From: Amoebophrya sp. A120
Taxonomy: Eukaryota; Protista; Dinoflagellata
Reading direction: 5' to 3'
NCBI GenBank assembly: GCA_905178155.1
Contig: CAJINV010000002.1
Span: forward strand, 10,210,146 to 10,274,145
DNA length: 64,000 bases
Shown here: positions 3,760-60,400 of the stretch, one piece after another
How positions within the stretch are numbered: the stretch's first letter is position 1
How the letters are laid out: every line of letters begins with the position of its first letter
Translations under genes and position numbers: made by a program
Notes under the pieces: model-generated
The model's database searches: none
Seen by the model: the letters and a program-made list of their open reading frames with translations, nothing else
What the model was told of the DNA's origin: nothing

Positions 3760-6164
3760 ATGGCTTCGTTTTTCGCGGAGCTGGTGGAGGGCTTTTCGGC
3801 TGATTATGCCCTGAAGCCCGCCGAATTCAAGCAGGCGGAAAGCATCAAGGAGAAGAAGATCAGCTACGGAAGGGTCTCGGAGCTGGTGAGTCAGTTTGAG
3901 GGACTAAAGGGAAAAAGCGGAAAGAGTAGTGGAAGTACATCTTCTCCGACCGGCGACCTTGCACAGCACCCGACTATAGGAGCGACAGCGGTACTACAAC
4001 TGCGGGAGCAAGAGTCCTCCTCCTGCACGGAATCTGCTAGCAGCACTGCAATATCTCACAGAAAAAAGCTGGCAGGGCATATTTGTAATGCAAAAATAAA
4101 TTTAAATACACAGAAAAACCTGTCATGGGCGACCTCGTAGCATGCTATTTCGGGTATGCAATACAAGTTTTTTTGTCTATTTATTTTTGCATTACAGCCA
4201 GCTTTTTTCTCTGGGATATGCAATCGCTCCAATCACCGGAAACATTTCGAGTTCCAGCTCCTCCTCCGGTGAGGAGCAGGGCACCTCGGCCTGGGGCCCA
4301 TCTTCTCGTGGTGCCGAAAACGGAGCGGCTTATCATGCGCAAGTGCATCTTCAACGGCGCCGGGCGCCGACAACTGCCGAACAGGAAGGAGACAATCCCT
4401 TCCTCGATTTTGCTTCGGGACTGTTCAACAGCTTGGTCAGCGGCGACTTTGAGTGGACGGATGGAGGCAGTAGCAGTAACGCGAACAGGAGACAAAGCAG
4501 ACCACCTGAGCAGCACCACGACCAGGGGTCCGCACTTTTCACGAGGGTCGCGACGAGTGACGAACCGATGACCCACACCAGCGCGCCCGCGCCCCACCCG
4601 GACCCGCTGCGAGCGCAAGGTTTATTTCCAATGCCACCGGAGCGACAGCCTGTTGCACAGGAGGAACCAGATGACATAGCGCACCCGGGAGGTGCGCCGG
4701 AACACTTGCAGTCGCCGAAATTATCCCACTCGTCAAGCTCCTCAGCAGCCACGCCGCCACGCACCGACGCAATGATTGCGTCGCCCGCTGCGGGCCGCGC
4801 TACCTCAACGACCTTTTCACCCGACCCGCCGCCGTCGAGCAACAAGAAGCTCCTTTCATCCGCCCCTGCACCGCCTTCAAACTCGCAGTTCGCTGCCGTG
4901 ATGCGGATAGAAAGAGAGTGGTACGAGAAGGGGGATGAGGAAATAAACGCGACCTGCTCCTCCGGCGCAGATGATGGGGTAACCGGAAGTAGTCAGAATA
5001 GGGTATCAGGCTCCTCGTCGACGAACACCGATATTGACGCCCGCCTGGAGAAGTTTCTCGCGCGTTTTGCTGACTACCAGACGGAAATCGTGAAGTTGCC
5101 GTCGGCGGCGTCGTCTTCGGCCGATGTCGGTAAACTAGTTATCCGGATTTGTCGTTTTTGATTCCTTTTTCGTTTCAAAACGGAATATCTCGTGCTGTGG
5201 AGGTTTGAGTGCTCGTAAAAAAATAGCATGATAATTATTCCAAACGAGTAGAAGAACGGAACCTTGTGCATAGATGCTTTTGGCATCATTATGCGTTACG
5301 ACTTCATCTGCACGATCATGAACAACAGGCTCCAGAGGAGGTCTCGTCACTGACCATCGGGCAACTACCGCACCGGCAGCAAACACGTACCGCATCCGCG
5401 GCCGCGACGTGGTGCTCCACTGGAACACGGACAGCTACTTCCTCGAGGTGATTGACGGGCCGATGCGGCAAAATTTGGAAGATTACCTGGTCACAGGTGA
5501 CGTCTCCACCGCACGGTACGACGAGCTTTCCCCGCTGAAGAAGCTGAACAAGTTCACCGACGCCAGTAGCTCCGCGAAAAAGCAGTTTTCCTTCAACGAC
5601 CACGAGTGTTCCTACAACCGCATCGAGGCGATGCGCGTCGCGAAGGAGCAGGCGAAGCTGCGCGCGAAGATGTCGGCATCGAATAGTTACACCGGAGAAA
5701 GCGGGTTGGGAGGCTCGATAAGCACAAGCAGCGTCCAGGCTTTTAGCAGGTATACTGAATTTTTATGCTAGGCGGGATCGATCTGCTTGTGTTCGTGTTG
5801 ACGTGTTATCGGCGCGTACGAAACCATGACAAAGTCATGCAGGGCTACTAGATAAAAACAGCATCAAGTGAATTTATTTACTCATTTCCGCAAACCGTAA
5901 ATAAACTCAAACTCCAGGTATCGTAAATGGCACGAAGCCGCGCTGAAGAAGGAAGCGCCGATCGACGCTTATGGCAATCGTGTGGAGCAATCGACCGGGC
6001 TTTCGTCGTACTTTGGCAGCATGTTTCAAAGTGACGCGGGGAGCAGCATGGTGACCGAAAGAGAGACCGGTATAGAGCGCCAAGGCACCGAGGTAAACAC
6101 AGACCCGGTAATGTACACCCCACCTGTAATGCTGAATCCTTTAGGAAGTTATGCCGCTCTGTAG
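3760..6164 (+). CDS. Hypothetical Ser/Pro-rich protein; exons ~3760-4051, 4224-5129, 5329-5749, 5918-6164
   Basis: ORFs 3760, 4142, 5409 and 5982 join in frame through one TIR-element intron and two GT-AG introns; no confident family (only a faint GAS2/GAR-like segment YRIRG...LEDYL). Confidence 0.7.
4052..4218. mobile_element. Introner-like TIR element, 167 bp (family C), TSD TGCAA
   Basis: TATCTCACAGAAAAAAGCTGGC...GCCAGCTTTTTTCTCTGGGATA plus inner IR TGTAATGCAAAAATAAAT; TGCAA at 4047-4051 and 4219-4223; removal gives ...STAIAPITGN... Confidence 0.9.
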
Positions 6165-13500: not shown

Positions 13501-16500
13501 ACAGAGCAACCAATTACTGTGTCATCGGACAGAACGGTCGTGACATTTGCTTCTGAAAAGGAGAAATTGATGAAGAATCCGAATCTTCTGTTGGACGAGC
13601 TTCATGCGTCGGGAAGAAGATCGAGTGATACTCATCTGCTTAGTTCCTCCTCGACAAAAACTCCAACTCTTCAGCCGGGCGACCTCATAGCGGGTCCCGC
13701 TTGGATCCTCGATGCTACGACCACGTGCGTCGTCGACGCCGGCTGCTTCGCCAGGATAAACGCCGAGTCGAGCATCGAACTCACGATTCCCCGAGCGGTG
13801 GACTCCACAATCACCCCTGCGGAGCTGAGCAGCTTGCAGACGCTTTCCACCGACTGCGGGAAGAGTATATTGGCATGGGGGGACGACGTCTTGCAGGATC
13901 AGAGGGGAAGGGAAGTGACGGAACAAATAAGCAAGCCAGATGCAGCACCAGCCGCTGGTGCGCGAGAAACAGTGTTGTCAGAGCGTGAACGAGTACAACC
14001 ACTTGGTTGTATGCAAGTAGTACGAACAAAGGAGAAGGCTTCTAAATCACCGCCAACAGCTGCAAAAAGTAGTGAGACACCTTCACCCACTCATGTACTG
14101 CGCCCGGACTCCGCCACCCTCTCAGTTTACGGACACCAATTTATGTCGATTGCGGAGCAGTGTGGTCGGGTGCTGCAACGAACGGCGGTGTCGGTGAACA
14201 TCAAGGAGCGTTTGGATTTCTCGTGTGCGATCTTCGATAAGGACGGGAACCTGGTTGCCAACGCGCCCCACGTGCCCGTGCATTTAGGTGCCATGGCGGA
14301 GACCATTAAGGCGCAGATTTTGCTGCGAAAAAGAGAGCTCGAGGAGTATGCGCGCAACGGTGCGACCACTAGTACCAGCACAGCAGGAGCACCAGAAGGT
14401 CGTTCTACTGCAACAGAATCAGCAGCTGCGGCAAGAAGCAATATTGGGAGCTGCAAAATAAAACCCGACAAGGATAGCACCTTCGCGTGGGTAACCAACG
14501 ACCCCTTTCTCGGTGGTAGCCACTTGCCGGACGTAACGGTGATCACGCCGGTATTTGAGGACGAGGAAACAACAAGCGGTACAACGCGTGAGCATCAAGA
14601 GGCCGAAGTACGAGCACTGTCAACAACAAGAAGTGCGAACGAAAAGGAAGACGCACGAACTTTGGTGAACACACCACGAGCTACAAAACCACATCGTGAA
14701 CTCCTCTTCTTCGTTGCGTGCCGGGGCCACCACGCGGACATCGGGGGCATTACCGCGGGTTCGATGCCCGCGAGGTCTACCAAGATAACGGAGGAGGGGG
14801 CGCTAATCACCTCTGAATTTTTGGTGAAGGGGAACGAATTTCAGGAGCAGAAAATGCGGGCGCTGTTCCGCGAATCCCGCAACCTGGACGACGTCATTTC
14901 CGACCTGAAGGCGCAGGTCGCAGCCAACTTCAGGGGGAAGGGCCTGTTGCTGAGTCTGCTGCGGCAGAACGGGCGGGACACCGTGCTGGCGTATATGAAA
15001 CATGTGCAGCAGTGGGCCAAGGGAGCGGTGCAGCAGATGTTGAAGCAGTTGTGCTCACAGTACGGCAAGAACGAGTTTTCCGCGGAGGAATACATGGACT
15101 GTGGAACGAAAATCCAGTTGAAAATCACCATGGAGGAGAGGAATCGCGAGGTGCATGGTGGTGATGAAGCTGGTTGTGGTTCAGCTTCTCCTTATGAAAA
15201 GATAGCCTCTGTTTATCACAGGGTTAAGCGCTTCATTCTTAAAAAATTCATTTGTCAAAAAAAAAATTTTTTTTAGTAAGGTTTGATGCACAGGAAGCTT
15301 CGCCTTTTCCACGACACCGGTTCCGCAGTTGTGACGAATCCACGGGGCAGATGTACTCCAGGAGAACGGCAGGATGGTTTGTTGATTTTTATGAATGATA
15401 ATACTAACTAGAATGGAGGCACAGCTAGCTAGATAATTCAATAGCATTCAAAAGATGTAAATGAAGGATCAACTCAGCAAACGAGACAGGAAGAACGTGG
15501 CTGTCAGGCAGCTGATGGTCAACGGGGAATCGTGGCTGTGTCTGCGCGTTCCCATTTACTGGAGATACCGGGGCATTCGTGGTGGAGCACAGCTGCTTCG
15601 CCACGATGTAAGTCCGTGGATTCGGGCGAATCCACGGACTTACATCGTGGCGAAGCAGCTGTGCTCCACCACGAATGCCCCTTTGCAGCGTCTGCCGGAG
15701 ATCCACAAGCTCCAATCCGTTTACCGGCCGTCGACTCCGCAGCTCCAGTCGCAGTTGTACACCAGAGCTTACAAAAGGGGTCCGCTATTTCTATTCAAAA
15801 TCAGTGATGTTATTTAATCTAACTAGCTGTGCCTCCATTCTAGTTATTTTACACTTTCATATCAACCAGCAGCAAGGTTCAGTCGTCGTTCCACTGGTCC
15901 AGGAGGTGCAGGTACCGCAATCGCCGTCGTCGACACGTAGCAGATGATGCTGTAAACAACACCATCAAACCTCACTAAAAAAAATTTTTTTTTTGACAAA
16001 TGAATTTTTTAAGAATGAATCATTTAGCCCTGTGATACTGTTGCACCTCCCGGAGACGCGAGCGAAAAGCACGACACCGCGACTTCCAATCACGCACTAC
16101 CAAGCCCAAGAACAGGAAGTCCGCAGCGCAAGGACCTGCAACTTCTTCCCGCCGCGAAGAGACGCAAAGTTAGTCAGGGGTCCCCTGCTGGTGTCGAAAA
16201 GCAGGACCAGAGTCGTGGAGGTCAGGATTTTTTCCAAGCGGTTTTTGATTTCACCGGCACAGGTCCGGAGCGCCCCGACTCGAACATCAACGCGCCGTCG
16301 GCAATCACTTCGGCCGCGATTATGTACTGTCTCCGGTCCCTCGTGAAGCAGGACATACCGCTGAATTCCGGGTGCCTGCTCCCGGTGAAAATTCTTCTGC
16401 CGGAGAAGTCCCTGCTCAACCCGAGCAACAATCTGGCGGTGTGCGCTGGGAACGTCACCACCTCCATGCGCATCGTGGACGTGATTTTGAAAGCGTTTCT

Positions 16501-17212: not shown

Positions 17213-17670
17213 AATGTTGGAAATGGAATAAAAGAATTGCGAAGTGACAATTGCTAGTGGCAGGACAATCGCATGCAAAGTGTTCTCAGGAGCACAGAGG
17301 AAACGAAATACCGGAAGTCTGTTCATTTTCTTCATCGACATCATTCTCTCTCTTCATCGCCATTTAACTGCAATGGATGCCACAGCCGGGCAAAAGAGAT
17401 GACTAGTCACGAGGTCTGAGAGTTTCGCAGTTGTAGCTAGAAGGCGACTTCTCCGGGTGATGTGGCGCCGTTCATTTTGGAATGACATGATTGTTTGTGG
17501 CCTCGAGTTTTCTTGTCTGAAGAGCATTCCGCTTAACCTCCAATTGCCTGCGAAGAACGAGAGTCACGTCGCAAGCGACCTGCGTATGTTATGATGTCGG
17601 TCCTCCTGTAAAGGGTAAACCCTCTCTTTTGGAGCACACACAGAATCAGAAAAACAAGTCCTCTTCTAGC

Positions 17671-18888: not shown

Positions 18889-19652
18889 ATGAAGCACTTC
18901 TTCCGCACGGTGCTTGCCGTATCGGCACTCTCCACGCATGTTGACGCCAAGGCCCGCAAAGCGAAAATCGGGATGGCGGACACGATTCGAGGTAGAGCTT
19001 CTCACTCCAAAGTCCATGACGGATGTTGCCGCATTCCCTTGTAAGTGTATGTAAATCTGGCATGCCATAGCTCCACTTGAATGACAAAGTCTGAAGTGAC
19101 ATCAAACAATCAACGACGATTTTTTGCAAATCATGATTCGTGGTATAATTGTTCCCACCGCCCCTAGGTACCTGCGTGAACCCCCCGCAAGAGGCCGACC
19201 TGCGCGAGCGTGTGGAGTACGGCGACAAGATCGAAATCAAGCTCTCCGCGTACACCGACAATCCGGAGAGTAAGGATGGTTTGGAGTACTCCGTGGACAA
19301 AGCCCTGCAGACCATCACCGTCGGCCGGGCGAACGTGCCGGTCCTCAACGAGATGACGCTGGGCATGTGCCCCAACGAGATCCGCCGCATCATGACCTGG
19401 ATCAACCCCAAGCACAAAATCGGCCCGCTGGCGTACAAAGACTTTTACTAAATTTACGAAATATTTGCTTCTTTTCGTTTCGTGATGCAAAATGTGTACA
19501 GTACTCGGAGAAACCGCATTGTTTTTGATGTCAGATTGGATCATTTTGTGCATGATTTGTATCCAAGAAGAACATACTGCAGGTACATGGTGGAGGTGGT
19601 GAAAATCGTGGCAAAAAAGGCAATATCCTTTGCAAAAGTATCGCTCACGTAA
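18889..19652 (+). CDS. Secreted/ER FKBP-type PPIase-like protein; exons 18889-18991, 19168-19432, 19583-~19652
   Basis: Signal peptide MKHFFRTVLAVSALS; FKBP-like VEYGDKIEI, LGMCPNEIRRI and LAYMVEVVKI; two GT-AG introns in phase. Confidence 0.65.
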
Positions 19653-20590
19653 ATGCGGCCATTTGATTTTGTAGCGTTTCGCGTTCGAAAACGCGCCCCA
19701 TGCATAATGTTGAGCTCCTACGCTTTGCTTTTGAAAAAAGCTGTCCCACGACGTATGGATCATTCCTGAGCGATACATCTTTTGCACTGCATAGACGCTG
19801 CAGGCCGGTGGCCCGGGCGGATTTGATGAGTTGTAGAATGTTTCTGTTATGACGCGACGTTGATTGACGTCACGTTGTTGACGCATGGCAATGTCAATCT
19901 TTCATTTGTTTTTCGTTTCATCTGTTTCTTTCTGTTTGTGAATGAATTTGCTTTCCTCTCTTTTTAAACTCAAGTTTTTCGCTCGTGGCGGTGACCTAGA
20001 ATTTCATTGGACAAAACTTTTGGAAAGGCGAGTAAGACTTGAGAATTTTTCTCCATGTAATGAACCACGACCAGACTGAAGTTTTTCTCTTTTTGACTTT
20101 GTGTCTACGAGGACGATTTTGTAAAATGAAAAAACATGATATTGGGTGATTGCAACGGGGGTATCCGCCTCACAAGTTTCTTTGTGCTTCGTTACAACCG
20201 TCCGGAAAAACAAAACTTTCTTGCCACTCAAAAACCGTCTTTGTTTCTCGATTTTTTTATGAACTAGTTGCGAACTTACTTTTTTCGAGATATTATGACA
20301 GGAAGGTGGAATTCAATTACTACACCCCCAGTTTTATGCTCGGGACCTCGCACTGAAAGGCAAAGGTTGCGTGTTCTACTTCCTGGGGCGATCATGCAAC
20401 GGATTCATGGTAGGCCGCCAACGCCTCAACCTCAAGTACTTAAAGATCCCGTATACCGGATGTTGAACAGCACTTGAAAAAGATCTCTTGAAAACGTACA
20501 GCTTGAGTTTGTACCTCCTCTGCTGAAGTATCTACACGTCGATCGATCGAGACGCAAGCGGAGCATCAATCACATATCGCCGAAAAAAAG

Positions 20591-24433: not shown

Positions 24434-26083
24434 CTACAGAAAGGATGCATTCGGGTCTAGTTGCAGCGCGTGTTGGAGGCTCAAAGCAGCTTCTTTCATC
24501 CCTTTTTTCGATTCCTCGACCTGTGTGAAAAAATCTTCGGCTTCAACGTCTGGACGCCGGTACCTATTTCTGTACTCGTCTAGGGGAGCAAGATCTGCGT
24601 CTTCGCTAAGTTTTTCTTTCGAAACCGTGCGACTTTCGAGCGCCTTTTGAATTTCCATTTGGGCGTGCTCTAGGTTGCCGCGATTCTCAGTTGTGAAGGT
24701 ACGCATTTCTGCCAGAGCGCGCTGCAGTACTTCGGCGTTGTGGTTCTTCGCGACCTCGTATCAACATGAAAAGCGTCCTCATCCTGGATCCAATCAAAGT
24801 TTGCGTGGCTGATATTAATGCATCAAGGGTCTGCGTTCATGTCTTAATTTGCAATGCTTCGCAGGGCAATAAACAGGTTGTCACCCGGAGCCGCGCCCTG
24901 CGGGGCTTTTGCTAAAAAACGCCTAAAAATTTTACGGGTCGCGCCAAAAGCCGGGACCCAGGCAGCCGGATCACCACATGGCGAGAGCGGCCACAAAGTT
25001 GGCCTCAGGGCGCGCCTACCCGCCCGGGGGTCGGCATCGAAGCAGAACGACGGCCGCTATCCGGCAAAGGCCAAGCGGGCAGGCACGCCCGCCCCGGACA
25101 AAGAGGTGGGCGCGGCACCGGACACAATTAGCGAAATCCGCGGCCGCCTTGAAGGGGGAAAAGGCAACACACCCCGCCAAGGGTCAGGGCGGTGTTCCGG
25201 GGCGTGGTCCACGCGAACGCGCCATCCTTCACCCGGGCCTCGCGAAATTAAGAGTCGGGGAAAAATAAGACGGCGCCAAGGAGCCGGGCCGCGGGCCCTT
25301 GAGGCCGCCTATTCGCCCCACTATCGGCGGGCTTATTTTCACGGCCCGAAAGTTGGCGGGCGCCTTTTTTGCGATTTCGTGTGCGATTTCAGTGTGCAAA
25401 AAAATAAAAGAAAAAATAAGCAAAAAAATAAGACCCCCCGGCCCGTGGCCGGGCGCGCAATAGGTGGGGGAATAAGAGAAAAAATAAGCGTTATTTTAGG
25501 CGAAAAAAATAAAAGAAAAAAATAAGACTTAAAAATAAGAAACAAAAGTAAGACCAAAAAGTAAGACCAAAAAATAAAACCAAAAAGTAAGACCAAAAAG
25601 TAAGACCAAAAAATAAGACCAAAAAGTAAGACCGAAAAGTAAGACCAAAAAGTAAGACCAAAAAGTAAGACGCAAAAACGGGCCAAAAAAATAAGAGCTT
25701 GGGCGCGGCCCTTAATTAGAGCGCAGCAAAGGTCTCGCGCACAAGGATGACACCCCGCCAGCTTTCTCCCAATTCCGGAAGTGCCTCAGGTGGGCGGCCG
25801 CAATGCAGCAGAGACCCGCGAAGAGCAAAAGGGGGCGAAGCCAGAAGCGAAAGCCTGTGCCGGAAAGGGCGAAGGCCATAAATTTTTTAGGCTTTAAATA
25901 GGGCCGCCACCGCAAGGCGCGGCGCAGGGTGAAGGTTGTTTCTTATTTTGGTATCATGCTTCATCTACCTGGGGAGGACTTCTCTTTTCAGGATGGTAAC
26001 TCGTATGCGGCTAGGTGCTGATCCAGACTCTTCGCTGCTTCTTCCACGACGACGCGCGCAGACGACGCAAGAGAGGTGCTCAT
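24434..26083 (-). CDS. Hypothetical ~134-aa helical protein split by a 1245-nt non-canonical intron
   Basis: MSTSLASSARVVVEEAAKSLDQHLAAYE joins in frame to (V/F)AKNHNAEVLQRALAEMRTFTTENR... once 24759-25998 plus 5 bp is removed. Confidence 0.7.
24759..25998. mobile_element. 1240-bp introner-like element with GC-rich cargo and a tandem array; TSD CCTCG/ACTCG
   Basis: Left end TATCAACATGAAAAGCGTCCTC; reverse complement of right end TACCATCCTGAAAAGAGAAGTCCTC; 4/5 TSD; removal restores the host frame. Confidence 0.75.
25517..25671. repeat. Tandem repeat, 13-bp unit AAAAAGTAAGACC, about 12 copies
   Basis: Directly visible array. Confidence 0.9.
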
Positions 26084-26567: not shown

Positions 26568-28736
26568 TCATTTTTTCTGTCGTTTTTGTTCGTGGGCAAG
26601 GCCTCCATCCCCGTTTTTCAGATACTTTTCCCACTTCTTGTGATTTAAGAACTTGAAGCTGGGCAGGTCCTTGATCTTCAGCAGGTAGTCTTTCAGTTTC
26701 AGCAGCTCAGTGTCGGTCCTCCCGTCTGTGAGTGCGTTCTTGAAGGGCCGGATCTTGAGTCCTTGCTGGGGGTTCAGCAGAAAATTCCGGCCCAAATCGT
26801 CAAACATGATCGTGTTCTCGGGATTGAAGTTTGCGCCGTAGTTCATCTGCTTGGCGTAGCGCCAAATCACCTCCAAAGGCTTGACTTTCACCACCGTTTG
26901 CTTTTTCGCGGACCAGGTGCTGATCATGGCCCGCGCGTCGAGCACGATGCAAAGGTTGAACGCGGTCGCTGGGGCGGCCAGAATTTCCAGCTGCTGCAGC
27001 TTCAAATCGATCCACTGCTTCCCGGTCGCGGACCAGATATGCTACGGAAAAACTACGCCATCAACTCCCTACGTGGTCTCAAGGTGCTAATATAATCATG
27101 TGAGTATTGAGCAAAATCTTATACAAAATTGTTCCAGCATAATTGCCTCGGTCTTTCTTATAGTTCTTTACTCCCTCACACTTACTTCACGCATTGAGAT
27201 GAAGAAATAGGCGACTCATTTCCGTTGGATACCAAATGCCAATGTCGTAATGCGGGTACACGGCGGTGAGGAACTCCATGAGGTACGGTCGGCGAAGCTG
27301 CAGCGCACTTTCTGCCGGGGTGCGGTGGTCGAAAAAGGTGTAGTCAATGTCGAGCATGAGCAGCTTCTTCCCCGGCCGCGGCGGGTTCACGATTTCGATG
27401 TAGTCCTTGCCGCGCGCCACGCGCTTGGCAATCTTGGCGTCGTCGGTTTCTGACAACACCGGTTGAAACACCGTGGACGAGCTGTAGTTGTTATTTGCCT
27501 CGTCGTCAAAGTCGTCGTCCTCGAAATCGTCCAGCGTGTCGGGGTATGCAGCGGGCAAGAGTACTCATACGTATTGACGATACGCGTTTTTGATAGGATC
27601 ATACGCACGACATCGGAAGACTTGTTCTCCGCTTTCAGAATCACAAGGCCACGAGACAGATTTAGAAATAGTGAAGTAGAGTAGAACGCTGTAAATATTA
27701 AACGATGTCTCATCTCTGGCTGGCAAGCTTCCTTCGTGGTGCAAAAAGACCACGACTCAAAACCGCATATGATCGTCGTGCCAAGGACTTTTGCGCAGGA
27801 TACGGTGGAACTGGCCAGGTCGTTAAACACGTCCATCATGGCATTGATCTCTGTTTCCGGCGACCCTAGAAGCATGACCGGAGAGCTCGGGTTTAGGATC
27901 TTCGCCCCCGCTGCAGTTTCTCCTCCTGGTGTTCCATCGGTTTTCATCTCTTCTTTCGGAACCAAGCTGAGGAAGTAGACCGCCAGTGATAGCGGTTTCT
28001 TCCGTGGACCGCTTTGCAGGGAGGCCGCCGGTTCGAGCTCCTCCTCCTTGATCGTTTTACCCTTGTACACGAGTTTCTGGCGGTGCGGCAGAATCTCGGT
28101 GAGGGAAAAGTATTACAGTGAAAAATGCCCCCCACCCCTGAAATTGCAAAAATTTGTGATGCGAAGTTTCCAAATGAAAACTTTTTGTCATGCATGAAAG
28201 GAGTATGAATCTTTCTGTTGCAGAGTCTAGGCGTGTATCGCATCGCTTGCATGACAAGCGCCGCTTTTGCTGGGGTCTTTTGCAAGACAAATTCTTGCTA
28301 TTCACGATTGGAAACTTGTGATGCTGATAGATGCAAGAGGGCGAAGGAATGTTTCATTTGGAAAGGTTTGCAATACAACTGCTCCCAAGTTCGGGGGTGG
28401 GGGCATTTTTCCTTTTGATAAAAAGAGCTCGTGCTTCAGCTCCTCCACCATGTAAACATGGAGGTCGTGCCCGATTTCGATGTCATAGACCTCTTTTTTC
28501 CATTTTACCTGCAGGATGAAGCTCTGCTGCTGTTTCTGCTGGGTTGAAACATCGGGATCTGATGTCGGCGCTCCAGTAGAGAGATCAATTTTATTTCCCT
28601 CCACTATCTGGGCGGGCGTAGGCTCGCTCGAGGACACGGACATTTCCTTGGAATCTTTTGTTACGTCGGCTGCTCGCGGGAGCTCGGCTGCAGCGGGTTG
28701 CGTCACTTCGGCCTGGTCCGTTGGCAGCATCGGCAT
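26568..28736 (-). CDS. UBLCP1: Ubiquitin-like domain-containing CTD phosphatase 1
   Basis: UBL segment (LQVKWKKEVYDI...ELFSLTEILPHRQKLVYKG) plus FCP/HAD motifs LDIDYTFFDHR, RPYLMEFL, YDIGIWSAT and NTIMFDDLGRNFLLNPQQGLKIRPFK; three non-canonical introns. Confidence 0.92.
27038..27231. mobile_element. Introner-like element, 194 bp, TSD CCAGA/CCAAA
   Basis: Ends TATGCTACGGAAAAA and (rc) TATCCAACGGAAATG; removal with 5 bp rebuilds the conserved DIGIWSATG. Confidence 0.8.
28111..28420. mobile_element. Introner-like element, 310 bp (family D), TSD AAAAG
   Basis: TATTACAGTGAAAAATGCCCCC... and (rc) TATCAAAAGGAAAAATGCCCCC...; perfect TSD; removal gives ELFSLTEILP. Confidence 0.9.
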
Positions 28737-35700: not shown

Positions 35701-38700
35701 TCTTTCAGATGCTGTGCGGTTTTCTTTTCCAAACTAGCCTCCCACTGCTCTCTCTTCTCCACCAGCAAAGCTCGCTCGACAATCAGCTCGTTCATGAGTT
35801 CCTGCTTCTCGTCGTTCAGCTGCTTCAGCTGCCGAATCAGCTGCTCCTCGGTTTTCCGCATCTGGTCGACCGTTTCCTTCGATTCGGAGGCGCGGAAATC
35901 GAGCTGCTTCTGCAGCTGCTGTTTCTCATCCTGCTCTGTCGCCAGTTTCGATTCCAGCTGCGTGTTTGTCGTTTGCTGCTTCAGCAGTTTCTTCTCCAGG
36001 TCGCTGATATTCGCTTCTTTCGCCTGCAACGTGGTTTGCAGCTCGGCGGTCTGCACGATTTGGTTTCGAATCAAACTTTTGTTTTTTCTCTTCTAGGGAG
36101 CACTTCTACAGGCTAGTAAAGGAAACGGGAAGCCAACCCTGCACTATGAAATACTAAGTCTCTTGCTCATCTTTCGCTACACATCAGCGAAATCGTTTCG
36201 TTCACAAGACACCAAGACACACACACCGACGTTCTTGGCATTCACTCGAATAGACAGATTTGAGATACACACTTTGCTTTCTTCCTACTGAAACCAGAAT
36301 CAGACACGGATATTATAAAACTTCAGTACTGTGGCAATTTGCGCCTCCAGCTTTTCCTTTTCGCAGACCATTTGCGCTTTAAGTTCGCTCACATTCAGTT
36401 CCACGCTTTCCTTCTCCTGTCTGACTTTCTCCATGATCCGCAGTCGCGTCTTTGCGACCCACTGGTGCGCAAACGTGTGTGCCTTCGCGATGGCTCTCTC
36501 TTTCCGCATTTTGATCATGATTTCCTGCACCTTTTTCACCTGCAGGTCCCGCTTGAACCGCTGTTTCGCCAGCAGCGTCCTCAGAAATGCCTGCAGCAAA
36601 ACCGCTGCCTTCAGTTTTCGCAAAAACTGCTTTCGCGCGAGACAGTGCCGCCAGAAGTTTTGCAGCTTCTTGATTGCGGTTTGCTTGAGTTCGGATTCTA
36701 GATCGCGGTTGTACGCTAGCTTCTTCAAAAACTTGCGCATGAGGTACTGAATTTTGGTCGCCTGTACCGACCGCTTGATCTGCTCCATGCGCCGCTTCGT
36801 TTCTTCGCGCTTTTGCTTTTGCCGCACCATCTCCTGTGCCTCGCGGAGGCCGTACACGTACTTTCGGGCGAGAACGCCGCGGACCAGTGCCTGGATCTTG
36901 TTCACCTTGAACCGCATGGAGAGGAAGTGTTTGCGGCATTTCCGCATCTTGCGGTAGGCGACGATAACTTTCTGCCCCCGGTCCTGCACTTTGAACGACA
37001 GCTGCCGGATCTGCTCGTACAAATTCTGCTTCAAGAAAACCAAGGATTTCCCGACGGCGTAGGGACAGACCTGTTTTGGAAACAATTTTTCTGGTCGAAG
37101 CAAGTGAATAAATCTTCCTGCGTGTCACGAGCGCTGAAAAATGAAAATCTTACGATCGGAAATCACGAAAAAGGACTCGTGGTATTGTTTGACGCGGCAA
37201 TCACGCCCGGAGACACCAATAGAAACTCGAGGCGCGTAAAACGCGACAACTTTTTTTTCTTTGCACTACTAGCGCTACTATCGCATAAAACTGAAGTTTA
37301 TTCCAGTAGGGCGAAAATAGCGACTCTGTAGGGCAGAAGCGTTTCGTGTCACAATGAATTCGTGAGTACCATTTAATGGCTACGACAGGATTCAGAACCA
37401 TCTGAAGAATGAACTTCGCATGTCTGAACGCGGCAATCACGCCCAGGGCAATGTAGTCAGAGACCCGAGGCGCGTAAATAACGCGACAATTTGCTTTTTG
37501 CACTACTAGCGCTACAATCGCATGAGAGAAAAAGCGAGAATAGCGACTCTGTAGGGCAGTGGGCTAATGTTTGTTCTCAAGAGATAGCTGACAGACTTTC
37601 AGAGGGTAGAAATGAAACGCGAAAGTGAACGCACTTATCTCCTGCTTGAATTAGAAACAGCGACAAGAACGTACCTCTCCGCCCTTCTGCGATTTGGATT
37701 TCTTCAGATTTCCCGGCGACGAGGTGATGGCGTGACCGCTACTATTTGTCCCGGAATTTCGATTTTTCATCATGCCTGTGCTATTCTTACCCGTCACTGC
37801 TCCCACACTTGCACTTCCCGTTCCCTTCATCAACTCCAGGCCACTGAATTCGTAGTGGTCCCCAATGTACGCCAGCAGCAGCTGCGACAGCTGATTCTGG
37901 TCCCGCAGCGTCTGCTTCAACGTGACGCGAATCTGTTTCCGCAGCTCCAAAGTGACCAGGCACCGAATCTGGCGCCAGAAATCCTCGTGCGACAAGCGGA
38001 TCGGATACCCGGCGCGCTGCGCTTCCACCACGGCCAGGACCCCCTGGTACCGCAGCTGTTCGCACACGAACTTCCTATCGTACTTGTCCGCCTTCTTCTC
38101 CAGGTTGGGCTTGATGCAGCGGATGAAGTGCGGCTCCGCGGCCGACAGGGTTTTGAGCAAATCGTCGAGCTGCTGTTTGAAAATGTGGCACAGCGTCGCC
38201 TGCTTCTTCCCGAACCGGGCGTTCCGGGACACGTCCAGCTGGGTTTTGTTACTGCCCCCGGTAGCGCTTTTATTAACATTCGTGCTACTGCCGGCGCCCC
38301 CGCTAGTACTGTCGTGGCTTTGGGGTTGGAACAGATTCCAGACGTACTTGTTCTGGCTGGTGGCCATGAGGTTCCAGACGTCCTGCGGGATCCCGTCCTT
38401 GTTTTTCTGCACGAACCCAGTGGAGGTGTAGTTCACCGGGCCGGCGTAGTGGTTCACGATGAAGCACTCCGGCTTGTGCTTGATCTCCCCGAAGTGGGCG
38501 TTCTTCTGCTCCTGGAGGAAGTTTTTCTTCAGCTTGTGCACAAAGCTGCGGTCGTTGCCGGTGGCCATCGAGCACTCGTCGTTCAGGACCGCAAAAATCC
38601 CGCTCCCGCGCTCCTCTATCAAATGTAAAAATGTCTGGGTCTGGAAGGTTGGAACTTGTCATGCAGATTTTACATGACCCGTGACGTCTGTGATGTATTC

Positions 38701-41700
38701 CCTAGCATCACAGATTTTCTGACTACGTCTTGATGCTTCTTCCGCATGACAAATGCACTCCCCGCGTAGCACCAACTGGACTCCTCTTGCTGGTCATGCA
38801 ATACAGATTTTTTTGGAATCCAAAGTTAGCATCACAAGTTCCAACTTTCCAGACCCAGACATTTTTACATTTGATACCTTCGATGAGCGCGCAACTGGCG
38901 GAGTTGTCCGGGAAGTCCAGGCTGCGCCAGTCGACGCCCTCGCGGTTGTACATCTTTGCCTCCTCCTGGAACACGTAGTTGTTGAAGTGCTTCTGCAGCC
39001 GCTCGTTGGCGTAATTGATGCACAGCTGCTCAAAGTGGTTGTCCTGGAAGCACTCGAAGCCGAAGATGTCCAGCACACCGATAAAAGTGGACACGGAGGG
39101 CACGTACCCGATGCTGCTGTTGGCCTGCTGCACCATCTTGTTGAACAGCAGCGAGTAAAAGTGCCGCGCAAAACTGTCCATGGTCTCCTTCGCCTTCTGG
39201 ACGCTGTTGCGCTTCGTGAACTGGTCGTTGGGCGTGACCACGTACTGGGAAGTGATCGCCGCCTCAAAGTCCTCCGCTTTCAGCCCCAAACACTTTTCCG
39301 CGATGTAGTCGCCGTGCTTCTTCGTTTCCTTCGAAAAGGAACTGTCGTCGGCCCCGCCTGTCGTGTGATGCTTTTGCTCCGTCCATAAACGAGAGGATAC
39401 AAATCGATTTTTTTGTTTATTGATCTCGTCGAGGTTATAAATTCTGAAAGGAAGATGGTATTCGTGGAGCATCATGTAAGCCATGTAAGTGGGAACTTTT
39501 GCATGCGTTCTTTGTTTCATCAGTCGAAAGATGGTGATTTTTTTCTCCGCAACCACGAACCTTGCGGACAAGGCGCATGTCAGCAAGAGGGTTAAATGTT
39601 TGTCCATCATTTTAAGGGAAGAACCTACTACTAGCTCCTTTCTCGATCATCTTACCTTGCCGACGGAAGTCGTTTACGGCGGAGCTCTTAGCGCGATCCA
39701 TCATGTGAAGTGTCTACATCTTTAGATCGCATCTTACATCTTGAACCTCGACAGCACAGATGTCAGTCGTGATCGTTCTCCAATTGCTGCGGATTTTTAT
39801 TCTTGTCCACGATGCCTAGCCAGCGAAATCGACTTTCTTCGAGCTCTTCATCACTTTGTGGTGACGCATCAACAGATCGGTTCTACTAGTACCTTCAAAC
39901 TCCACGAGCCCGAGGCGTAGAACTGCCCCAATGCAGCGCAGCAAATCTTCGAGCTCGCCTTGGTCGAGGCCGATCGTTTGCAGGGCAAACACCGTGTGCT
40001 CGAAGTCCACCAGGTCTGTGCTGCTGTAGCCCTCGTTCGAACTGGTCATGGCCTGCAGGTCAACCCCGACGAACGGCGTCAAATCGATTTCCCACGCTTG
40101 CGTGTCCGACGTGCAAATGTCCATGCCGCTGGCCAGCGCCCCGCTGTTGCCCCCGCTGGTGCTGTCCTGCAGCTGCGACAGCTTTTGTGGAAACTTGTAC
40201 ACGTGCTTGGTCGTGGTCGAGGCCTCTTCGGATTGTATCTCCACGGTTTCCGTCGCCGCCCGCGCGCACTGGTACATGATGTGAAACGTGCGCTCGCCCG
40301 GCATCTGCTTGGTCACGCGCACCTTCTCCAGTAGGTAGGTCAGGATGCGGGCGCCGCTCAGCCGCGTGTGGCGGAACTGCAGCTCGATGAACTTCCCGAA
40401 CCGGCTGCTGTTGTCGTTCCGGAGAGTCTTCGCGTTGCCGAAGGCTTCCAGCAGGGGGTTGGTCTGCAGCACCTGGTTGTCCACGTGCGAGCCCAGGCTC
40501 TGGACCGCGCGCCGCACCTTGTCCCAGTTCGTCTTTCGCCGGTTGCTGTTGTGGATCGAGTCCATCAACGTCGCGTTCTGCGTGATGTCCGAGGGCGGGA
40601 TGATGCCCGACTTGTTGTCCGGAATGGTGGGCAGCTGCTGCTGCACGGACCCCGCGATGGACATGGTGTGCAGCCCGCCGAAAAAGTTCCCGCTTGACGC
40701 CACGGTCGGCACGACGTTGCACTGCAACAAAGGGCCGGCCTGCACCAAGAACCGCATCACGTACTTGGTCGTCTCGGTCTTGCCGCTTCCCGACTCGCCA
40801 CTGATCAGAATCACCTGCGACTGTTTGTTGTCCAGGATGCCCTTGTAGGCACGCGCCGCCGTGGCGTAGGCAGACGGAACCCAGGCTGTTCAGTAGATGT
40901 TGATCGTCGATCAGGGAGGTGGTGCATGCATGACTTGATAACGATATTACCATTGAACGATATAATGAAGTCGTAGAAGTCGAAATGAAGTCAGTATTAC
41001 AGTTGATATATTCGCAGCAGTGTTTTCGCCGAAATTAGTAGCCGTAGGTGCGCAAAGAAAAAACTTCTTCTCGAGCAAAGCTATACGAAAAACTCGCCAC
41101 CGTCTTACCCTTCTTCGACATGCACGCCCGTATGTTGATGGGCCCGCCCCCACCGTTTCCGGCGTTCCCGGAGGTCAGATGGTGGTGCTTCAGGTCGCCG
41201 CAGCCCGCGGCCGATCCGGCCAGCATCGACTGCACGGAAGACAGGTCGTCCATCTTGATCGACACCCGTCCGCTGATATCGTAAGCAAAAATCCCTCCTC
41301 CCCATATTCAACAAAAGGTTTTTGATGCGCGACTTGTGTACACAAATCGACGTGCATTGCTGGTGGAAGCCAAAGGGACACACCTGCGCCCTAGTTTTCA
41401 CGCAGTGCAGTCGCTCCCTGTCATCCTGACGACTTAAGTCCTTCCACGCCAGACAGCACTCAAGTCCGCATCTCTACTTCCCAGGACACGTTGATGTGTG
41501 ATTACGAATCATGCTAGTAAAACAAGTTCTACTTTACCGAATATCATGGGGAAGAGGGTTTTTTCACTTCGATACCTGACCCGGGGCACGTCGGAGGACC
41601 CGTGCGAGCCCAGGTGCGATGGCTCCACCTCGACCACGTAGGGCTCGTAGGTCAGGTAGGAGTGCATCAGCTCGGGTGAGTACAGGTTCGGGATCTGCTT

Positions 41701-42923: not shown

Positions 42924-45327
42924 TCAGTACCTTCCTTGCGAATTATCCTGGGGTGGGGTTGTACTATCAATGTCCCCATCTGCTCCTCGCCTCCTGCAAG
43001 AACTGGGACAACATGCACAACAGCACCTTTCGAGTGCCGGAAACCTACGTAAACATCGCACCAACAAGGAATTTTGTATCCATCTTGGCCAGCTGTTGGG
43101 GGGCGGGCGGAGCCGCTTGTAGTCGGTGCACACGAGCAGCACGGTGGACAGGAAGGCGCACCCTGTGATGGCAAACCAGATCAGGTACATGGGCATAATG
43201 AAGGACTCGTCTCGATCTTCGACCACCGCGCTGAACACGTTGCTCACCGCCGAAAAGAGCCAAAGAAACACGCACAGCACGGGCCCCTTCTCGTTGAACC
43301 ACCGGCTGCTCGTCTCCACTTTCCTGCGTCCCGGGTACATCGCCTTTTTGAAGCACACGAACACGCCGAACAGGAAAATTGGCACCATGCGCCGACTATC
43401 CCGGGAAAAAGGAACCTCGCACCTCTAACAATTCCACGTTCGCCACTGCATCTAAGTACTCATCTGTTACTCTTGATAGTACTAGAAGATCCCTACTTGA
43501 TGCAGCAGCCTTCGATGATTTTGTTAATTGTTAATCGCGATTTGCATGATGTAAGCCCATGACGAAATGTTGCCTGCGTGAGGACAAAAATACTTACTTA
43601 TTATAGAAAGCATGGTTTGAGCGGTTGGTCACTGTATGTAATGCATTGTGAATGAGGGCGAGGTTCTTTCACAGCTGCGTAGACACTTGCATCGGAGGGG
43701 TCCGTCAGCTGTGTGTGGTCTACGTAAAGGAACCAGTTTCCGAAGACGATCCAGGCGTGGAGAAAGCGGTCCGTCTGGCGCTCGAGGTTGCTCATGCAGG
43801 CCAGGAGCAGGTGGCAGAAGGAGACGGACAGCAGGTACAGGGTCATCGCGCGCCACTGGTACACGTCCAATCCGTACAGCTTTCGGTGCGTCAGGTCGTG
43901 CAGCGCCCGGCGCGCGTCCAGATCTCTCTGCCCGGGGTTACGGGAATACAGATCCTCAATGTAGTAGGCCGTGTCGTTTGCGATGTCATACTTGATGCTC
44001 GCAATCGTGCAGAGCAGCATCGGCGTATCAGGGTGCACAATTTTTCCCCAAATCCCCTTCTTGTTCAAACTCGAAAGAGGAACTATGATTATCAATCACA
44101 ATATGAGGCACGGAAAATAACCGTACTGTTTTGTTGATAGATACCACTACAGGCTCTACGGGAATAGAAGTGCGGTTACGTAAAAAACGCAGCAGAAGGG
44201 AGAGTTGAAAAATGGCCAAAAAGTCAGGTGGGGGGGTTGTGCACGCTGATACAAAGAAGAAAACCCGAAGGCGAACGTGAAGACATGCTCCCACCTATCA
44301 TATTGAGAGGCGCCCCCCCGCTCCAAGAAGTTGTTGTTTTGTACTATTTGATGTATGCGCCGCTTTTTGCTTTATTATTATATATCCAGCCTTGACATGC
44401 TCGACGTCACCTTTACTTTATGTCGTTCTCTTTTTCCAAGATAATGCAGTGAAATCTTGCAAGAGTTGTGTTGCTGATACAAACTCTCACGTTCAAGTGC
44501 CACATGCTTCATTTGTGTTTCATGTTTATCCAAATCAATCGCGAAGCTTTACGAATACAAAGATAGATCGACATCCCATTCTTGGGGCGGTAGGGACGCA
44601 TTTCATCTGGATACCACCCGTAGCCGCGCCGCAGGTAGACTCCGGCCTGCCCAAAGTAGGGACAATGCGCAAGGATGATGAGCAGCATGTTATCCTGAGT
44701 AAAAACGTACCCACACCAGAGTTGTAATGCAAATCTGCATGCTGAAAATGTTTCTCATGCGGAGCCCCATGAGAAGCATTTTCTAGTCGTGTTTTGCAAT
44801 TTGTCATGCTCCAATCAGCATGGTATGCTAGATCTGTGATGCTGCTGAGCTAGCTCAAACAGCACTACACTACGAATCCAAATTTGTCATGCAAAACAGC
44901 CAAAACTTGTGGATTTGTCTAGCCGATTCCCCATCTTGACTATGGTGTGGGTACGTTTTTACTCAGGATACATGTTAAACCAGAACAAACCCTCCGTTAC
45001 CAAATGTAAAAATGTCTGGGTCTGGAAGAATGCAACTTGTAATGCGTATTTCAGAACACAGAAAAGTCTCTCATGCATACGCAGCAAAAGCTCCCACTTT
45101 TTGCCAGCAAAATAGGGGACCTGTCATGCGGATTCGGCATTGCGGAAGGTTCTCGAAACCTGTGATGCTAGAGCTTCCATGCCAGACCTTCTGTGTCATG
45201 CAAAAACAGCATGACTCTTCCAGACCCAGACATTTTTACATTTGATATCCGTCGGACCGGAACCATTTTCGGCTTCGGTTTTCGGTGCGGTTTTATGCGC
45301 ACAGAGAGGGAACTCAACAAGCATCAT
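42924..45327 (-). CDS. Multi-exon multi-pass membrane protein (weakly TMEM8/DUF3522-like); boundaries approximate
   Basis: Removing the two elements gives PTEGLFWFNMLLIILAHCPYFGQAGVYLRRGYG; further hydrophobic exons at ~43690-44050 and ~43000-43420. Confidence 0.55.
44691..44970. mobile_element. Family B introner-like element, 280 bp, TSD CATGT
   Basis: Perfect TIR TATCCTGAGTAAAAACGTACCCACACCA; perfect TSD. Confidence 0.95.
44998..45247. mobile_element. Family A introner-like element, 250 bp, TSD TCCGT
   Basis: TACCAAATGTAAAAATGTCTGGGTCTGGAAG...CATTTTTACATTTGATA; perfect TSD. Confidence 0.93.
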
Positions 45328-51678: not shown

Positions 51679-53189
51679 TCACGTCGAGCCAGAGGAACGC
51701 AGACAGCTCCCGCAGAGCATTTTTATGCCTGAATAGACCATGGAAAAAATGAGGTTCAGAAACCGCGTGCCGCCGGGTACGTAGGACAGCAGAATGTAGG
51801 CTAAGGAGACGAGCTCGCCGACCACACAGAACAGTGTGAGAAAGTACGACTTCAGGACCAGCGAAGCATACAGTACGCCGAGGAAGCTCAGGCAGTAACC
51901 AACCGCGAAAGCGGCGCGCTCCGACGCAAACGCGAAGGACAGAAAGGCGCTCTGTTTTGATAATTTTAATTTGAATTAGGTGGCGCTGCATTCGTTCTAC
52001 CTTCACACCAGCCAGTATTCGTTCTTCAAACTACTAACAGTAAATACGCATAGCGTGAAACAAGAACTACTCGCGAGAGCTAAGCCTTAGCGCTAGCATA
52101 ATTCAAACGAGTGCATCACGTGAACCGGCCCAAGACGAAGTAGTACTTACCATTCCCCGCAGCGAGACGTTCGCACTGACGATGCTGAGCGAGCCCATGG
52201 AGAAGAGAAGCGCAAATTTTTGCGGCGCTAGGACCACCACAGGCAGAAACATCATGGACATGCCGACCATTTATCAAATGTAAAAATGTCTGGGTCTGGA
52301 AGATTGCCAGGTTTGTCATGCTCTTTTTGGATTCTAAAAAAATCTGCATTGCATGAGCAGCAAAGAGAGTCCAAGTTTTGCTACACGGAAAGAGCATTTG
52401 TCATGCGATATAGGCATCAGGAAGCCCTCACAAAATCTGTGATGCTAGGGCATGCATCACAGACATCAGGAGTCATGCAAAATGTGCATGACAAACCTGG
52501 CAATCTTCCAGACCCAGACATTTTTACATTTGATACCATTATCATTCCGACCACCAGCAATATCGCAAACCACTGCATGCGCTCAGCGCTGGGTGGAGCA
52601 ACAGATTCGACGGAAGTCCTTATGCTGGAGCCAGTGGATTCGAGCGCACCTGAAGATTTGTAGTTGGCGAAGTTCACTCTGATGAAGTGTAGCCGTCGTC
52701 GTGCGTTAACAATTACGCTATCAATCTCTGTGGTGCGATGCACCGCAGTATTCCTCCATCACAGAAGGCTGTAGAAGCAGTTCTTATTCACAACATCGCA
52801 AGCGCAGAATGAGGGGACGAATACGAATCACAATCGAACTAGAAGAGGCTGCAGCCCCGCCGTCCTGCGTTCGAGACAGCGGGAGTATGATGCAGCACTA
52901 GCTCTGTTAACTGAGTAAGGAAGTAGGTACCCGCAACGCGATCCACTGGCGCATACTCCCGGGCGGACTGTGCCGTGGTTGATATTTTTTCCTTGAACGA
53001 CCCGGCTACACTGCCAAAAAACCTTCCCGCTTGTTGTGCGGCCTGCTGCGCCTTCTGTGCAGCATTTTGTGGTTGCGAACTCGAGGATTGCGAGGTGCCA
53101 GACTCCAGATCTACAAAGTCTTGCGTTCCGCCGAACACGCCCCATTGCTTCTGCTTATGCTGCTGCGAAAACGCTGATAAAGCGGACAT
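51679..53189 (-). CDS. SFT2: SFT2/Got1-family vesicle transport membrane protein; multi-exon
   Basis: After element removal: ERMQWFAILLVVGMIMVGMSMMFLPVVVLAPQKFALLFSMGSL...LRG; last exon ...LKSYFLTL...YILLSYVPGG. Confidence 0.85.
52272..52535. mobile_element. Family A introner-like element, 264 bp, perfect 50-bp TIRs, TSD CCATT
   Basis: TATCAAATGTAAAAATGTCTGGGTCTGGAAGATTGCCAGGTTTGTCATGC at both ends. Confidence 0.96.
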
Positions 53190-57400: not shown

Positions 57401-60400
57401 TTTGTGTTTGTAATTGTATCCTACAGTTACTACATGACAAATGAGGGGGAGAGACACGAGCCGTGCAGTTTCATAGCGCTCCTCCAGTGTTTTAAACAGT
57501 TGCTCGTCCTTCACGTCAAATTGCGCCTTCACGTCGAGCAGTTTCTTGTCCACATCGAGCTTCTCGGTTTTCAGCGTCTGATACTTGTCGATCTGCTGCT
57601 GCAGCAGGGTCTCCGCACTTAGTCGGGAAGTTGATGCTTTCTCGTGGCCAGCAGCTCCGTTGGTGTTCTCATCTCTACTCGGCGCCTTTGCTTTCAGTGC
57701 AGCCACCTCATCCCTCAGCTCGTCCGCCTCGTCTGCGGTCTTCTGAAGGAGTACGACCTGTTTCTGCAAATCCGCAATCTCTCTCTCCAACTTTTCCGTT
57801 GCGGTTTTCTTTTCGGCCTCCGCCTGCTTCAACCTCTCTGCCATCAAGTCGCGCACTTCAACATCTTGTGGTATTTGTATGTGTGCCTTTTTGCCACCTT
57901 CTGCGTCCTTCAGTTTTGACTTCATCTCCACCACCAACAGTTCGGATTTCCCGAGTTGGTCCTTCAGGGACAAGACGTGCTGTTCCAAAGACTCGCGTTC
58001 TTCGTTTAGCTGCAACTGCAGGGCTTGCTTCTGCATTTGGAGCTCCACCTGCATCAACTGCAGCTTCTGCTCCAGCTCGGCTTCCTTTCGCTGCAACTTT
58101 TCCTCATGCTGGGCCTTGCTTTTCTGCAGCAGATTCTCCAGGATCTTTACGTCCGCTCTCGTCTCTTCGTCTACTACGTCCGTGCTTGTTGTTCCTGTCT
58201 TCTTCGCCTGTTGTACTAGCTGGTCTGTCTCGGACGTTGAAGAAGGCTCCTGGGATTCGAATTTCACAGGAGGCGACGACGTGTTGGTCGCTGCGTTCGC
58301 TTTCTGCTTTTGGTTATCGCCTTCCGTCTCGGTTCCGGTTGCGGCGTCGGACGTAGAAAACGCGTCTTCCTTTGCGTCCTCTCCATCCGCCAATGTGCCG
58401 ACGTCCTTCAACTGCCTGCCGTTCTTCCACCGCCGGGGCGAACTCTCCTCGGACTTTTTCGGAGTCATTTGCTTCTGCAGCTTCGCCTCCCTGGCGATGG
58501 CCGTCTGGATGCTTGCGAGCTCCGTCTTCGTAGTTGCCAGTTCCCTCTCTAGACCTTCCTTCGAAGCTTGCATCTTTTCGAACTGCAGACCGGATTCGGT
58601 AATCTTCACCGTGGCCGTCACCAGCTGCTGCTGCGACTCTTGCTATGCATTGCAAATATGTCTGGGTCTGGAAGGATGCAATTTGTGATGCTGCCTCTGA
58701 ATTCTACAAAAATCTGTATTGCATGAACAGGAAAAGAGGTCCAGTTTTTGCCAGGGGGAGAGGGCATTTCTCATGCGATATAGGCATCAGGAAGCCCTCA
58801 CAAAATCTGTGATGCTAGGGCATACATCACAGACATCAGGAGTCATGCAAAATGTGCATGACAGACCTTGCATCCTTTCAGACCCAGACATTTTTACGGT
58901 TGATACTTGCAGTTGCTGCACGAAATTCAGTCGCTGCTTCTCCACCTCCTGGTTGATGCTCAAAATTTCGTTGTGCAACTGTTCATTCTCTCTTTCGAGC
59001 TCGCGCACCTTGCTGCTCGTGGAAGGCGAGAGCGTATCGGCTTTCGTCGCTTGAGGTGGGCTTCGCGCTAGGATGTCCCTTGGAATGGCCTTGAAAAACT
59101 GTGGACCCGCACTCTCCTGTTGAATCGCGGGAGGTTCGTCTGCTGGCAGTTGCTCTTCGGTGGTCGAAGGGTGGTCAGCATTGCGACGTGAGGTTTGCGC
59201 AGCTGTATCAGACACTTCTGCCTCCACCTGTCGCTCTCTACTTCGCTTCATCAGCTGTTCGCGTTGCTCTTTGACCCGCTGTTTCAAAAAGTCCAGTTCG
59301 GCGTCTTTCGCTTCGATTTCGTTCTCAAACTCGACCTGCTTCAGGTCTAACTCGCGCGTTTTGCTCTGTATCTCCCGGTCGTAATTCAGCAGCTCCTGCG
59401 TTTTCAAATTCAGCTCAAATGCGTGCTTCTCCTTACTCTGCTCTGCAGACTTTTCGTACTCCGAAAGCCGGGCTTCGTAGTCCGTGGCGAGCGCCTTTGC
59501 CTCTTCCTCCTTGGTCCGCTTTTCCTCCGTCAATTTCACCCGCAGTTCGTTTAGTTCCTCTCTCAGCTTTTGCTTCTCCACCCGTAACTCCATGACCTCG
59601 GATCGGTCAATCTCCTGCTCGCCCTCGAAAAACTTTATGCCCGCGGATTTATCCGAGACGGCATACGTTCCGTCGTCTGACGCGTTGGGCTCGGGGCTGC
59701 TGAGCATCGGGAGAACCCCCGGTTGGTGATGCGACTGCTGCGACGAGGGATTTTCGTTTTCTTGATGCCCCTTCGAGGAAAGATTGGACTGCTGGTCGTT
59801 GAATATCGTGTCGTTCGAGGATTTTTTGGTGCTCTCTCGGTCTACCTCCACTTGATGCCGGCGCGAAAGTGATGAAACCCCGGCGTCCTGCGGCCTTCGT
59901 TGTTCGTCCTCGGGGGTGGATGAAGGCGAGGCTTCGGCTTCGGTCCTTTTGTTCATCGCAGCCCTCTCCGCGAGAAGCTCCTCGCGCTCGGCCAAGATTT
60001 TTTTCTCCGCCTCAATGGCCCTGGTTTCCGCTTGGAACAGCCGGGACTCGATTTCCTGGATCCGGTCGTTTTTCTGCTCTTCAATCTCCTGTTTTCTGGC
60101 CTTTTCAATTTGTAGCAGACTCTCCATCGCATTCTGCTTGTTCTGCAACTCCTGCTTTTGCAACTCCAGAAGCTCGACTTTCTGCTGCGCTTCCCGCACT
60201 TCTGCGTCGGCGTTCCGTTTTGTTGTACTTGCGGGCCCATTTTGTAGTTGTAGTTCCGCGTCTTGTTCTTTGGTTTTCGCAGATAGCTTTTCGTTTTCCT
60301 TTTCAAACTTCGTGTTTTCGAGCTGCAGTGCGTCCACGAGCGCCCGCAACCGGTCCACCTCATCGCGGTTTTGTTCCTTCATTTCCAGAATGACCTCCGA

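Follow-up and report, generated by a model that had tools for sequence, protein, structure and literature searches.

The stretch of Amoebophrya sp. A120 DNA analysed here (64,000 nucleotides of contig CAJINV010000002.1, positions 10,210,146 to 10,274,145; hereafter the window) is gene-dense eukaryotic DNA, in which Pfam matches identify genes for 5-oxoprolinase, an NIF phosphatase, myosin, and EF-hand and WW proteins. The top match of the 5-oxoprolinase comes from Amoebophrya (1158 bits versus 754 for the runner-up; 46% over 80% of the query). The window contains 19 elements with TA ends, which are probably introners of the type described for A120, i.e. non-coding inverted repeats that are removed together with five flanking bases, with an end motif that is likely to be the recognition code of a putative transposase. 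As in A120 introners, repeated elements are removed from transcripts at non-canonical sites and the direct repeats overlap the exon/intron borders; as in miniature inverted-repeat transposable elements (MITEs), the elements are short and without coding capacity, and have terminal inverted repeats (TIRs) and a target-site duplication (TSD) of fixed length.

The initial annotation of the window had quoted eight element termini, all of which are indeed present, and had proposed that unrelated element families share one terminal code, TAT-N7-AAAAA-YG. On the two strands of the window TAT-N7-AAAAA has 27 matches, compared with a mean of 4.7 and a maximum of 11 in 100 Markov simulations, and when the A-tract is placed at any of 26 other distances from TAT the count is only 0–11. 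Twenty of the 27 matches are element ends; the remaining seven correspond to background level. Eighteen of the 19 elements were tabulated, and their 36 ends begin with TAT (33) or TAC (3), carry at least four As at positions 11–15 in 27 cases and YG at positions 16–17 in 23, 16 of these 23 coming from families A and B. The 5-bp TSD is perfect in 11 of the 18 elements. At the A-tract positions, the copies at 44026 (CACAA at both ends), 44296 (AGAGG/AAATG) and 15214 (TTAAG/CTAAA) are off the pattern. The list of elements drawn up at the outset, while correct in the ends it quoted, had left out those at 27545, 43397, 44026, 44296 and 19624.

How the elements are spliced can be read from transcript contigs of two runs (X3 and X5, both from a single sample that a tool guesses to be RNA), the joints of which cover the interval 26800–46000 of the window. 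Two canonical GT-AG introns are absent from these contigs, the long exon pieces of which match perfectly; matches in the raw-read runs X9 and X10 were to element pieces only, with no junction. Fifteen joints are displayed, with four more beyond those, and 11 of the displayed ones belong to TA elements. At 11/11 of these, the element plus exactly 5 nt is removed, which restores the pre-insertion sequence wherever the TSD is intact; a ‘+3 nt’ model, in which cuts would fall 1 nt outside each end, is ruled out by the same joints. Most of the joints are slidable. The joint 43392–43683, however, permits only a cut 1 nt upstream and 4 nt downstream of the element (CT-CG), and 44020–44252 permits either 0+5 or 1+4, such that 1+4 is the sole register fitting all 11. 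Among the spliced copies are several in which A-tract or TAT is not intact—44026 (CACAA), 44296 (AGAGG/AAATG), 43397 (TGAAA, TAC) and 44998 (TAC)—and the full motif is thus not needed for splicing. For the elements at 4052, 15214, 19624, 24759, 52272 and 58644, reading frames predict that they are spliced as well. Table S4 of Farhat et al. (2021; PMC7789003) lists nine predominant splice site types of A120, of which eight are NT-AN and all nine have T in second place; this is compatible with, although no proof of, N|TAT donors on either strand.

A wider comparison was based on 130 loci (of an estimated 230 or so stretches) from one metagenome assembly of a close relative, which were retrieved with the family A end as bait and comprise 794 kb, partly overlapping; viral contigs (searched with two patterns) and prokaryote genomes gave no match. 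Scanning these loci for paired inverted repeats flanked by exact repeats of at least 4, i.e. without requiring the motif, returned 395 pairs. Of these, 254 begin with TA, and in 249 of the 254 the TSD is exactly 5 bp. In 107 of the 141 non-TA pairs the ‘repeats’ are palindromic, and these pairs are artefacts of nested inverted repeats. Clustering yielded 13 credible multi-copy families, leaving out 16 small clusters without a perfect TSD, one cluster of a window element plus inner palindrome, and 58 singletons. All 13 families start with TAT; the A-tract is present in nine and absent in four (TCAAA, TCAGG, CACAA, TCAGG). Outside family A, at least four As were found at 192 of 242 ends and YG at 56 of 242. 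The shared terminal motif is real, has already been published for A120 introners—as TAT, seven variable bases and at least three As, in the part of Farhat et al. (2021; PMC7789003) used here—and is overstated as universal, as the three deviating window copies and the four tract-less families of the relative demonstrate. Its universal part is TA plus the 5-bp duplication; the A-tract is common, and YG, being family-specific, stands outside the code.

All these families have something else in common. A box, TGTVATGC (wider form WWWYYTGTVATGC), lies inside elements of 13/13 families, including those without A-tract, at densities of 7.4–15.3 per kb, compared with 1.15 in the background and none in 12.2 kb of exon. 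Calling the families ‘unrelated’ was therefore too strong, even if the interiors of the window families do not align to one another. At the family level, box sites cluster at distances from the element end of about 33, 43–45, 55, 64 and 75 nt, and their phasing (R = 0.55 at 10.5 bp, permutation p = 0.016, n = 20 sites; a statistic that is weakened by its use of families that are not independent) may reflect a DNA-binding protein that contacts one face of the helix. The box has been lost from most of the old copies in the window, which are nonetheless spliced. The covered literature on Amoebophrya introners, a scope outside which lie figures S19–S25 of Farhat et al., eight of the 58 A120 rows of Gozashti et al. 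and Roy et al. (2023), makes no mention of the box.

Table 1. Elements of the window, with position, strand (.: none assigned), length, TSD (fractions: matching bases) and further observations.
Position	Strand	Element	Length (bp)	TSD	Observations
4052..4218	+	introner, family C	167	TGCAA/TGCAA	reading frame kept when element+5 removed
15214..16037	+	nested-palindromic introner in 5-oxoprolinase gene	824	CTGTT	TIR ~75 bp; without A-tract
19624..19793	+	old introner, family-1-like ends		degenerate	element+5 removal predicts frame ending FDEL-stop (sequence only)
24759..25998	-	old TAT/TAC introner carrying nested 1052-bp element		4/5	element+5 removal predicts open 135-aa frame (from sequence alone)
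24881..25932	.	nested GC-rich element of other type, outside TAT code	1052		TCACCC ends; 6-bp repeat AGGTTG
27038..27231	-	old introner	194	4/5	199 nt skipped in transcript
27545..27802	-	old introner	258	4/5	263 nt skipped in transcript
28111..28420	-	family D	310	AAAAG	315 nt skipped in transcript
29770..30136	-	family A	367	CGCGT	372 nt skipped in transcript
30894..31160	-	family A	267	ACTGT	272 nt skipped in transcript
33934..34213	-	family B	280	CATAG	285 nt skipped in transcript
38617..38876	-	family A, in myosin gene	260	3/5	not among displayed transcript joints
41277..41574	-	old introner	298	4/5	register 1+4 would give GT-AG; not among displayed joints
43397..43681	-	old introner	285		donor end TAC and TGAAA; 290 nt skipped in transcript; CT-CG junction not slidable (1+4)
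44026..44251	-	old introner lacking an A-tract (CACAA)	226		231 nt skipped in transcript; 0+5 and 1+4 both fit
44296..44613	-	introner, A-tract degenerate	318	CCACC	323 nt skipped in transcript
44691..44970	-	family B	280	CATGT	285 nt skipped in transcript
44998..45247	-	family A, TAC at one end	250	TCCGT	255 nt skipped in transcript
52272..52535	-	family A	264	CCATT	orthologous gene in L091 has near-identical copy 19 nt away
58644..58905	-	family A	262	CTTGC	positions 4-10 differ between its two ends

Across the 824-bp introner at 15214–16037, the match to Pfam model PF02538 breaks off at model position 256 and resumes at 257. This introner contains a perfect 55-bp hairpin (15570–15681), has no coding match and is near A120 families 38 and 196 in size; its host gene (10573–17212) is expanded by long low-complexity insertions, the first exon exceeding 1500 codons. 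A 13-bp tandem array lies at about 25465–25711 within the nested element at 24881–25932. The family A copy at 52272–52535 and its counterpart in locus L091 (66–327), which has its own TSD, are 95% identical, with one change across the right ~190 nt and a different left ~60 nt, and at neither insertion site does the other strain have a footprint. A local hop with precise excision is possible; other copies reach 93–94% identity, and an independent insertion is compatible with the data as well. Outside the elements, the segment 22800–24200 is AT-rich (GC content ~39%), with many ATC/GAT words and weak inverted repeats, and is unlike its neighbours, and a canonical intron at 37071–37675 contains an internal duplication of ~100 nt (near 37190 and 37430), as judged by eye.

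As the initial annotation had stated, the window encodes no recognizable transposase: neither in the 34 ORFs (open reading frames) covered out of 86 of at least 150 aa nor in seven element ORFs was there a Pfam match to a transposase or integrase. The same holds for 123 of the 272 ORFs of at least 200 aa from the loci of the relative, and regular expressions for transposase motifs gave no match either. Multi-kb elements with the same ends and a DDE transposase ORF, a search suggested by the initial annotation, were also sought in these loci; just one long element there has perfect ends, and it is non-coding. This TAT-N7-AAAAA element (L064:11261–14200, 2940 bp, within a gene) has a 43-bp perfect TIR and the TSD GCCGT, and is a nested composite that includes a tandem array as well as nested palindromes and an inner inverted-repeat unit, with no Pfam match in 10 ORFs. 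It suggests that multi-kb cargo is tolerated between TAT ends.

An important question is whether the end motif acts in DNA or in RNA. In the relative, both orientations are occupied (61 versus 46 for family A), base frequencies at the insertion target are close to background (G at position 5 in 81 of 241 sites, AG at positions 3–4 in 25 of 241), and no target preference that would create GT or AG was seen among these 241 sites. A gene-strand model agreed with the reading of the strand for 16 of 17 window elements, the single miss lying under the margin applied. Where the two ends of an element mismatch, the G-U and the A-C type are about equally frequent (116:115, 40:33 and 177:154), i.e. there is no preference for RNA wobble. 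Inherited variation is concentrated at positions 4–10 (23%), and rates of rare variants are similar for TAT (3.0%), A-tract (4.4%) and interior (4.0%). That a modified spliceosome recognizes the entire bipartite motif as a splicing signal in RNA, with only its carriers tolerated in exons, seems improbable to us on this evidence. Such a signal would agree with the failure to detect U1 small nuclear RNA (snRNA) in the genus Amoebophrya, as stated in the part of Farhat et al. covered here (PMC7789003), as well as with the low variability of TAT and A11–13, the persistence of TA in old copies and the strand bias of the box detailed below. Yet copies without A-tract are spliced and four of the 13 families lack the tract altogether, 5' and 3' element ends are equally conserved, and 33 copies with non-coding-like flanks keep the motif at least as well (1/198 and 2/198 changes).

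Several observations weigh against reading the motif as a code in DNA. With a filter for TSDs, variation is lower at TAT (1.65%) and A11–13 (2.2%) than in interior A/T columns (6.4%), which could reflect host selection; the 6.4%, however, include inherited variants, and TSD copies mismatch at 13/380 sites, suggesting a neutral rate below this interior figure, so the filtered rates neither show nor exclude such selection. The box occurs in excess on the sense strand (483 versus 387), an asymmetry not predicted for a signal read in DNA alone, and G precedes the 5' TAT in 11 of 17 window elements, unlike in the relative. On the supporting side, five old RNA-defined window copies have TA at 10/10 ends, while their TSD copies differ at 8/25 positions and A11–13 has changed at 5/24 sites (44026 excluded), which suggests that the host keeps TA and not the tract; these copies have no blastn match in the relative and may belong to unsampled families, and a corresponding test of old copies in the relative was overwhelmed by spurious pairs. 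A further point against this reading is that the 1+4 register is fixed by one non-slidable junction that is flagged ‘between: not known’, in the one sample of guessed RNA status. Finally, no transposase was found in the window or in the 794 kb of overlapping loci, and Farhat et al. (2021; PMC7789003), in the part drawn on here, detected none in A120 and gave arguments against mobility by means of a transposase.

The last point would also suit a route via RNA, in which the excised hairpin intron is reverse-transcribed and then inserted by a long terminal repeat (LTR) retrotransposon integrase able to use TA ends and to generate duplications of 5 bp. LTR integrases give TSDs of 3–6 bp according to the sources covered, A120 family 38 shows Copia/Gypsy-like homology along with ‘5-bp TSD, TA/TA Termini’ (PMC12130899, covered in part), and family A copies look mosaic. 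We nevertheless consider this route unlikely, since none of the elements examined contains an LTR, primer site or retroelement ORF, the box is phased as a DNA-binding site would be, a nested 2.9-kb element with perfect ends exists and the shift at L091 resembles a local hop. The least probable of the alternatives is common descent from one ancestral element, with shared ends and box as inherited leftovers and several enzymes perhaps now moving the families. Short similarities between consensus sequences across families and the four families without A-tract would be expected from such a history; TA, 5-bp TSD and box have, however, stayed unchanged while positions 4–10 and the interiors diverged, which calls for continuing constraint.

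With respect to a shared recogniser, for which the initial annotation had considered a transposase and/or a splicing factor, the invariant TA, the fixed 5-bp TSD, the roughly phased box and the use of both orientations thus speak for recognition at the DNA level, whereas a splicing factor that needs the full motif is not supported, since copies with deviating ends are spliced. The terminal TA likely doubles as a splice cue. In the preferred reading of the motif as a DNA-level code, a DDE transposase provided in trans would cut at TA and would bind the internal boxes, spaced from the end in steps of ~10.5 bp; in most families it would also bind the A-tract one turn in. Splicing would read the outer TA only, with cuts placed one nucleotide ahead of the 5' TA and four nucleotides beyond the 3' TA, where N|TAT would resemble the GTA of a donor site. 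If so, this 1+4 cutting should make insertion in any direction harmless to the protein. A bolder and doubtful version has one integrase-like transposase related to IS3EU/GingerRoot, with 5-bp TSDs and recognizing TA plus helically phased boxes, move thousands of introns, which the host splices by a 1+4 ruler, seamlessly in either orientation.

The motif alone adds nothing to the literature, which still leaves two questions: the mobility of introners, and their splicing, which uses no GT-AG and apparently no U1 snRNA. The box inside the elements can serve as bait for the mobilizing protein, and removal of the element+5 in the 1+4 register is a precise splicing prediction that can be checked against existing RNA data. 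If both the box and the 1+4 rule are true, they explain how this genome tolerates tens of thousands of exonic transposon insertions.

hAT elements typically have several copies of a subterminal binding box, and the termini of Transib elements are CAC..GTG. Of these two superfamily candidates, both named at the outset, Transib does not agree with the TAT/TAC ends found here, and hAT5 is a possible candidate, with a TSD that is likewise 5 bp in the sources covered, while no hAT transposase was found here. Ginger1 and Ginger2 have TGTNR termini in the part of the source used (PMC2836005), which the TA ends do not match. IS3EU/GingerRoot elements, as far as the portions covered describe them (PMC10045372, PMC12730594), have TA..TA ends, with TAYGG in fungal families, and two families of the relative start with TATGG; IS3EU/GingerRoot fits the ends at least as well as hAT5, but its TSDs are usually 6 bp and not 5 bp as here. 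No transposase superfamily passes all tests.

Nothing separates the window elements from the A120 introners of Farhat et al. (2021; PMC7789003, in part): genus, TAT start followed by seven variable bases and at least three As, non-canonical splice sites and lack of an internal transposase are the same, and the direct repeats are given there as 3–5 nt, or 5 bp in the legend of figure S19. To what is covered of this published account, our data add the uniform 5-bp TSD, the removal of element+5, 1+4 as a candidate register, families that lack the A-tract, and the internal box. In the classification of Gozashti et al. (2025; PMC12130899), TIR DNA elements without a known superfamily make up most of the A120 families (among 50 of the 58 A120 rows). 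Their family 38—a TIR element of ~810 bp with ‘5-bp TSD, TA/TA Termini’ and, reportedly, ORFs with Copia/Gypsy homology—is like the 824-bp element of the window in TIR, TA ends, TSD and size, but the latter has no Copia/Gypsy-like ORF. The nonconventional introns of Euglena (PMC12501133, in part) also combine complementary terminal triplets, fixed unequal spacers, slidable direct repeats and a proposed MITE origin. There, the triplets are CAG/CTG, and the spacers of 3 and 5–6 nt to the cuts have been tested genetically, whereas TA(T) with spacers of 1 and 4 nt is what our data predict for Amoebophrya, a genus that a review, in the part covered, groups with such nonconventional intron cases (PMC11282704).

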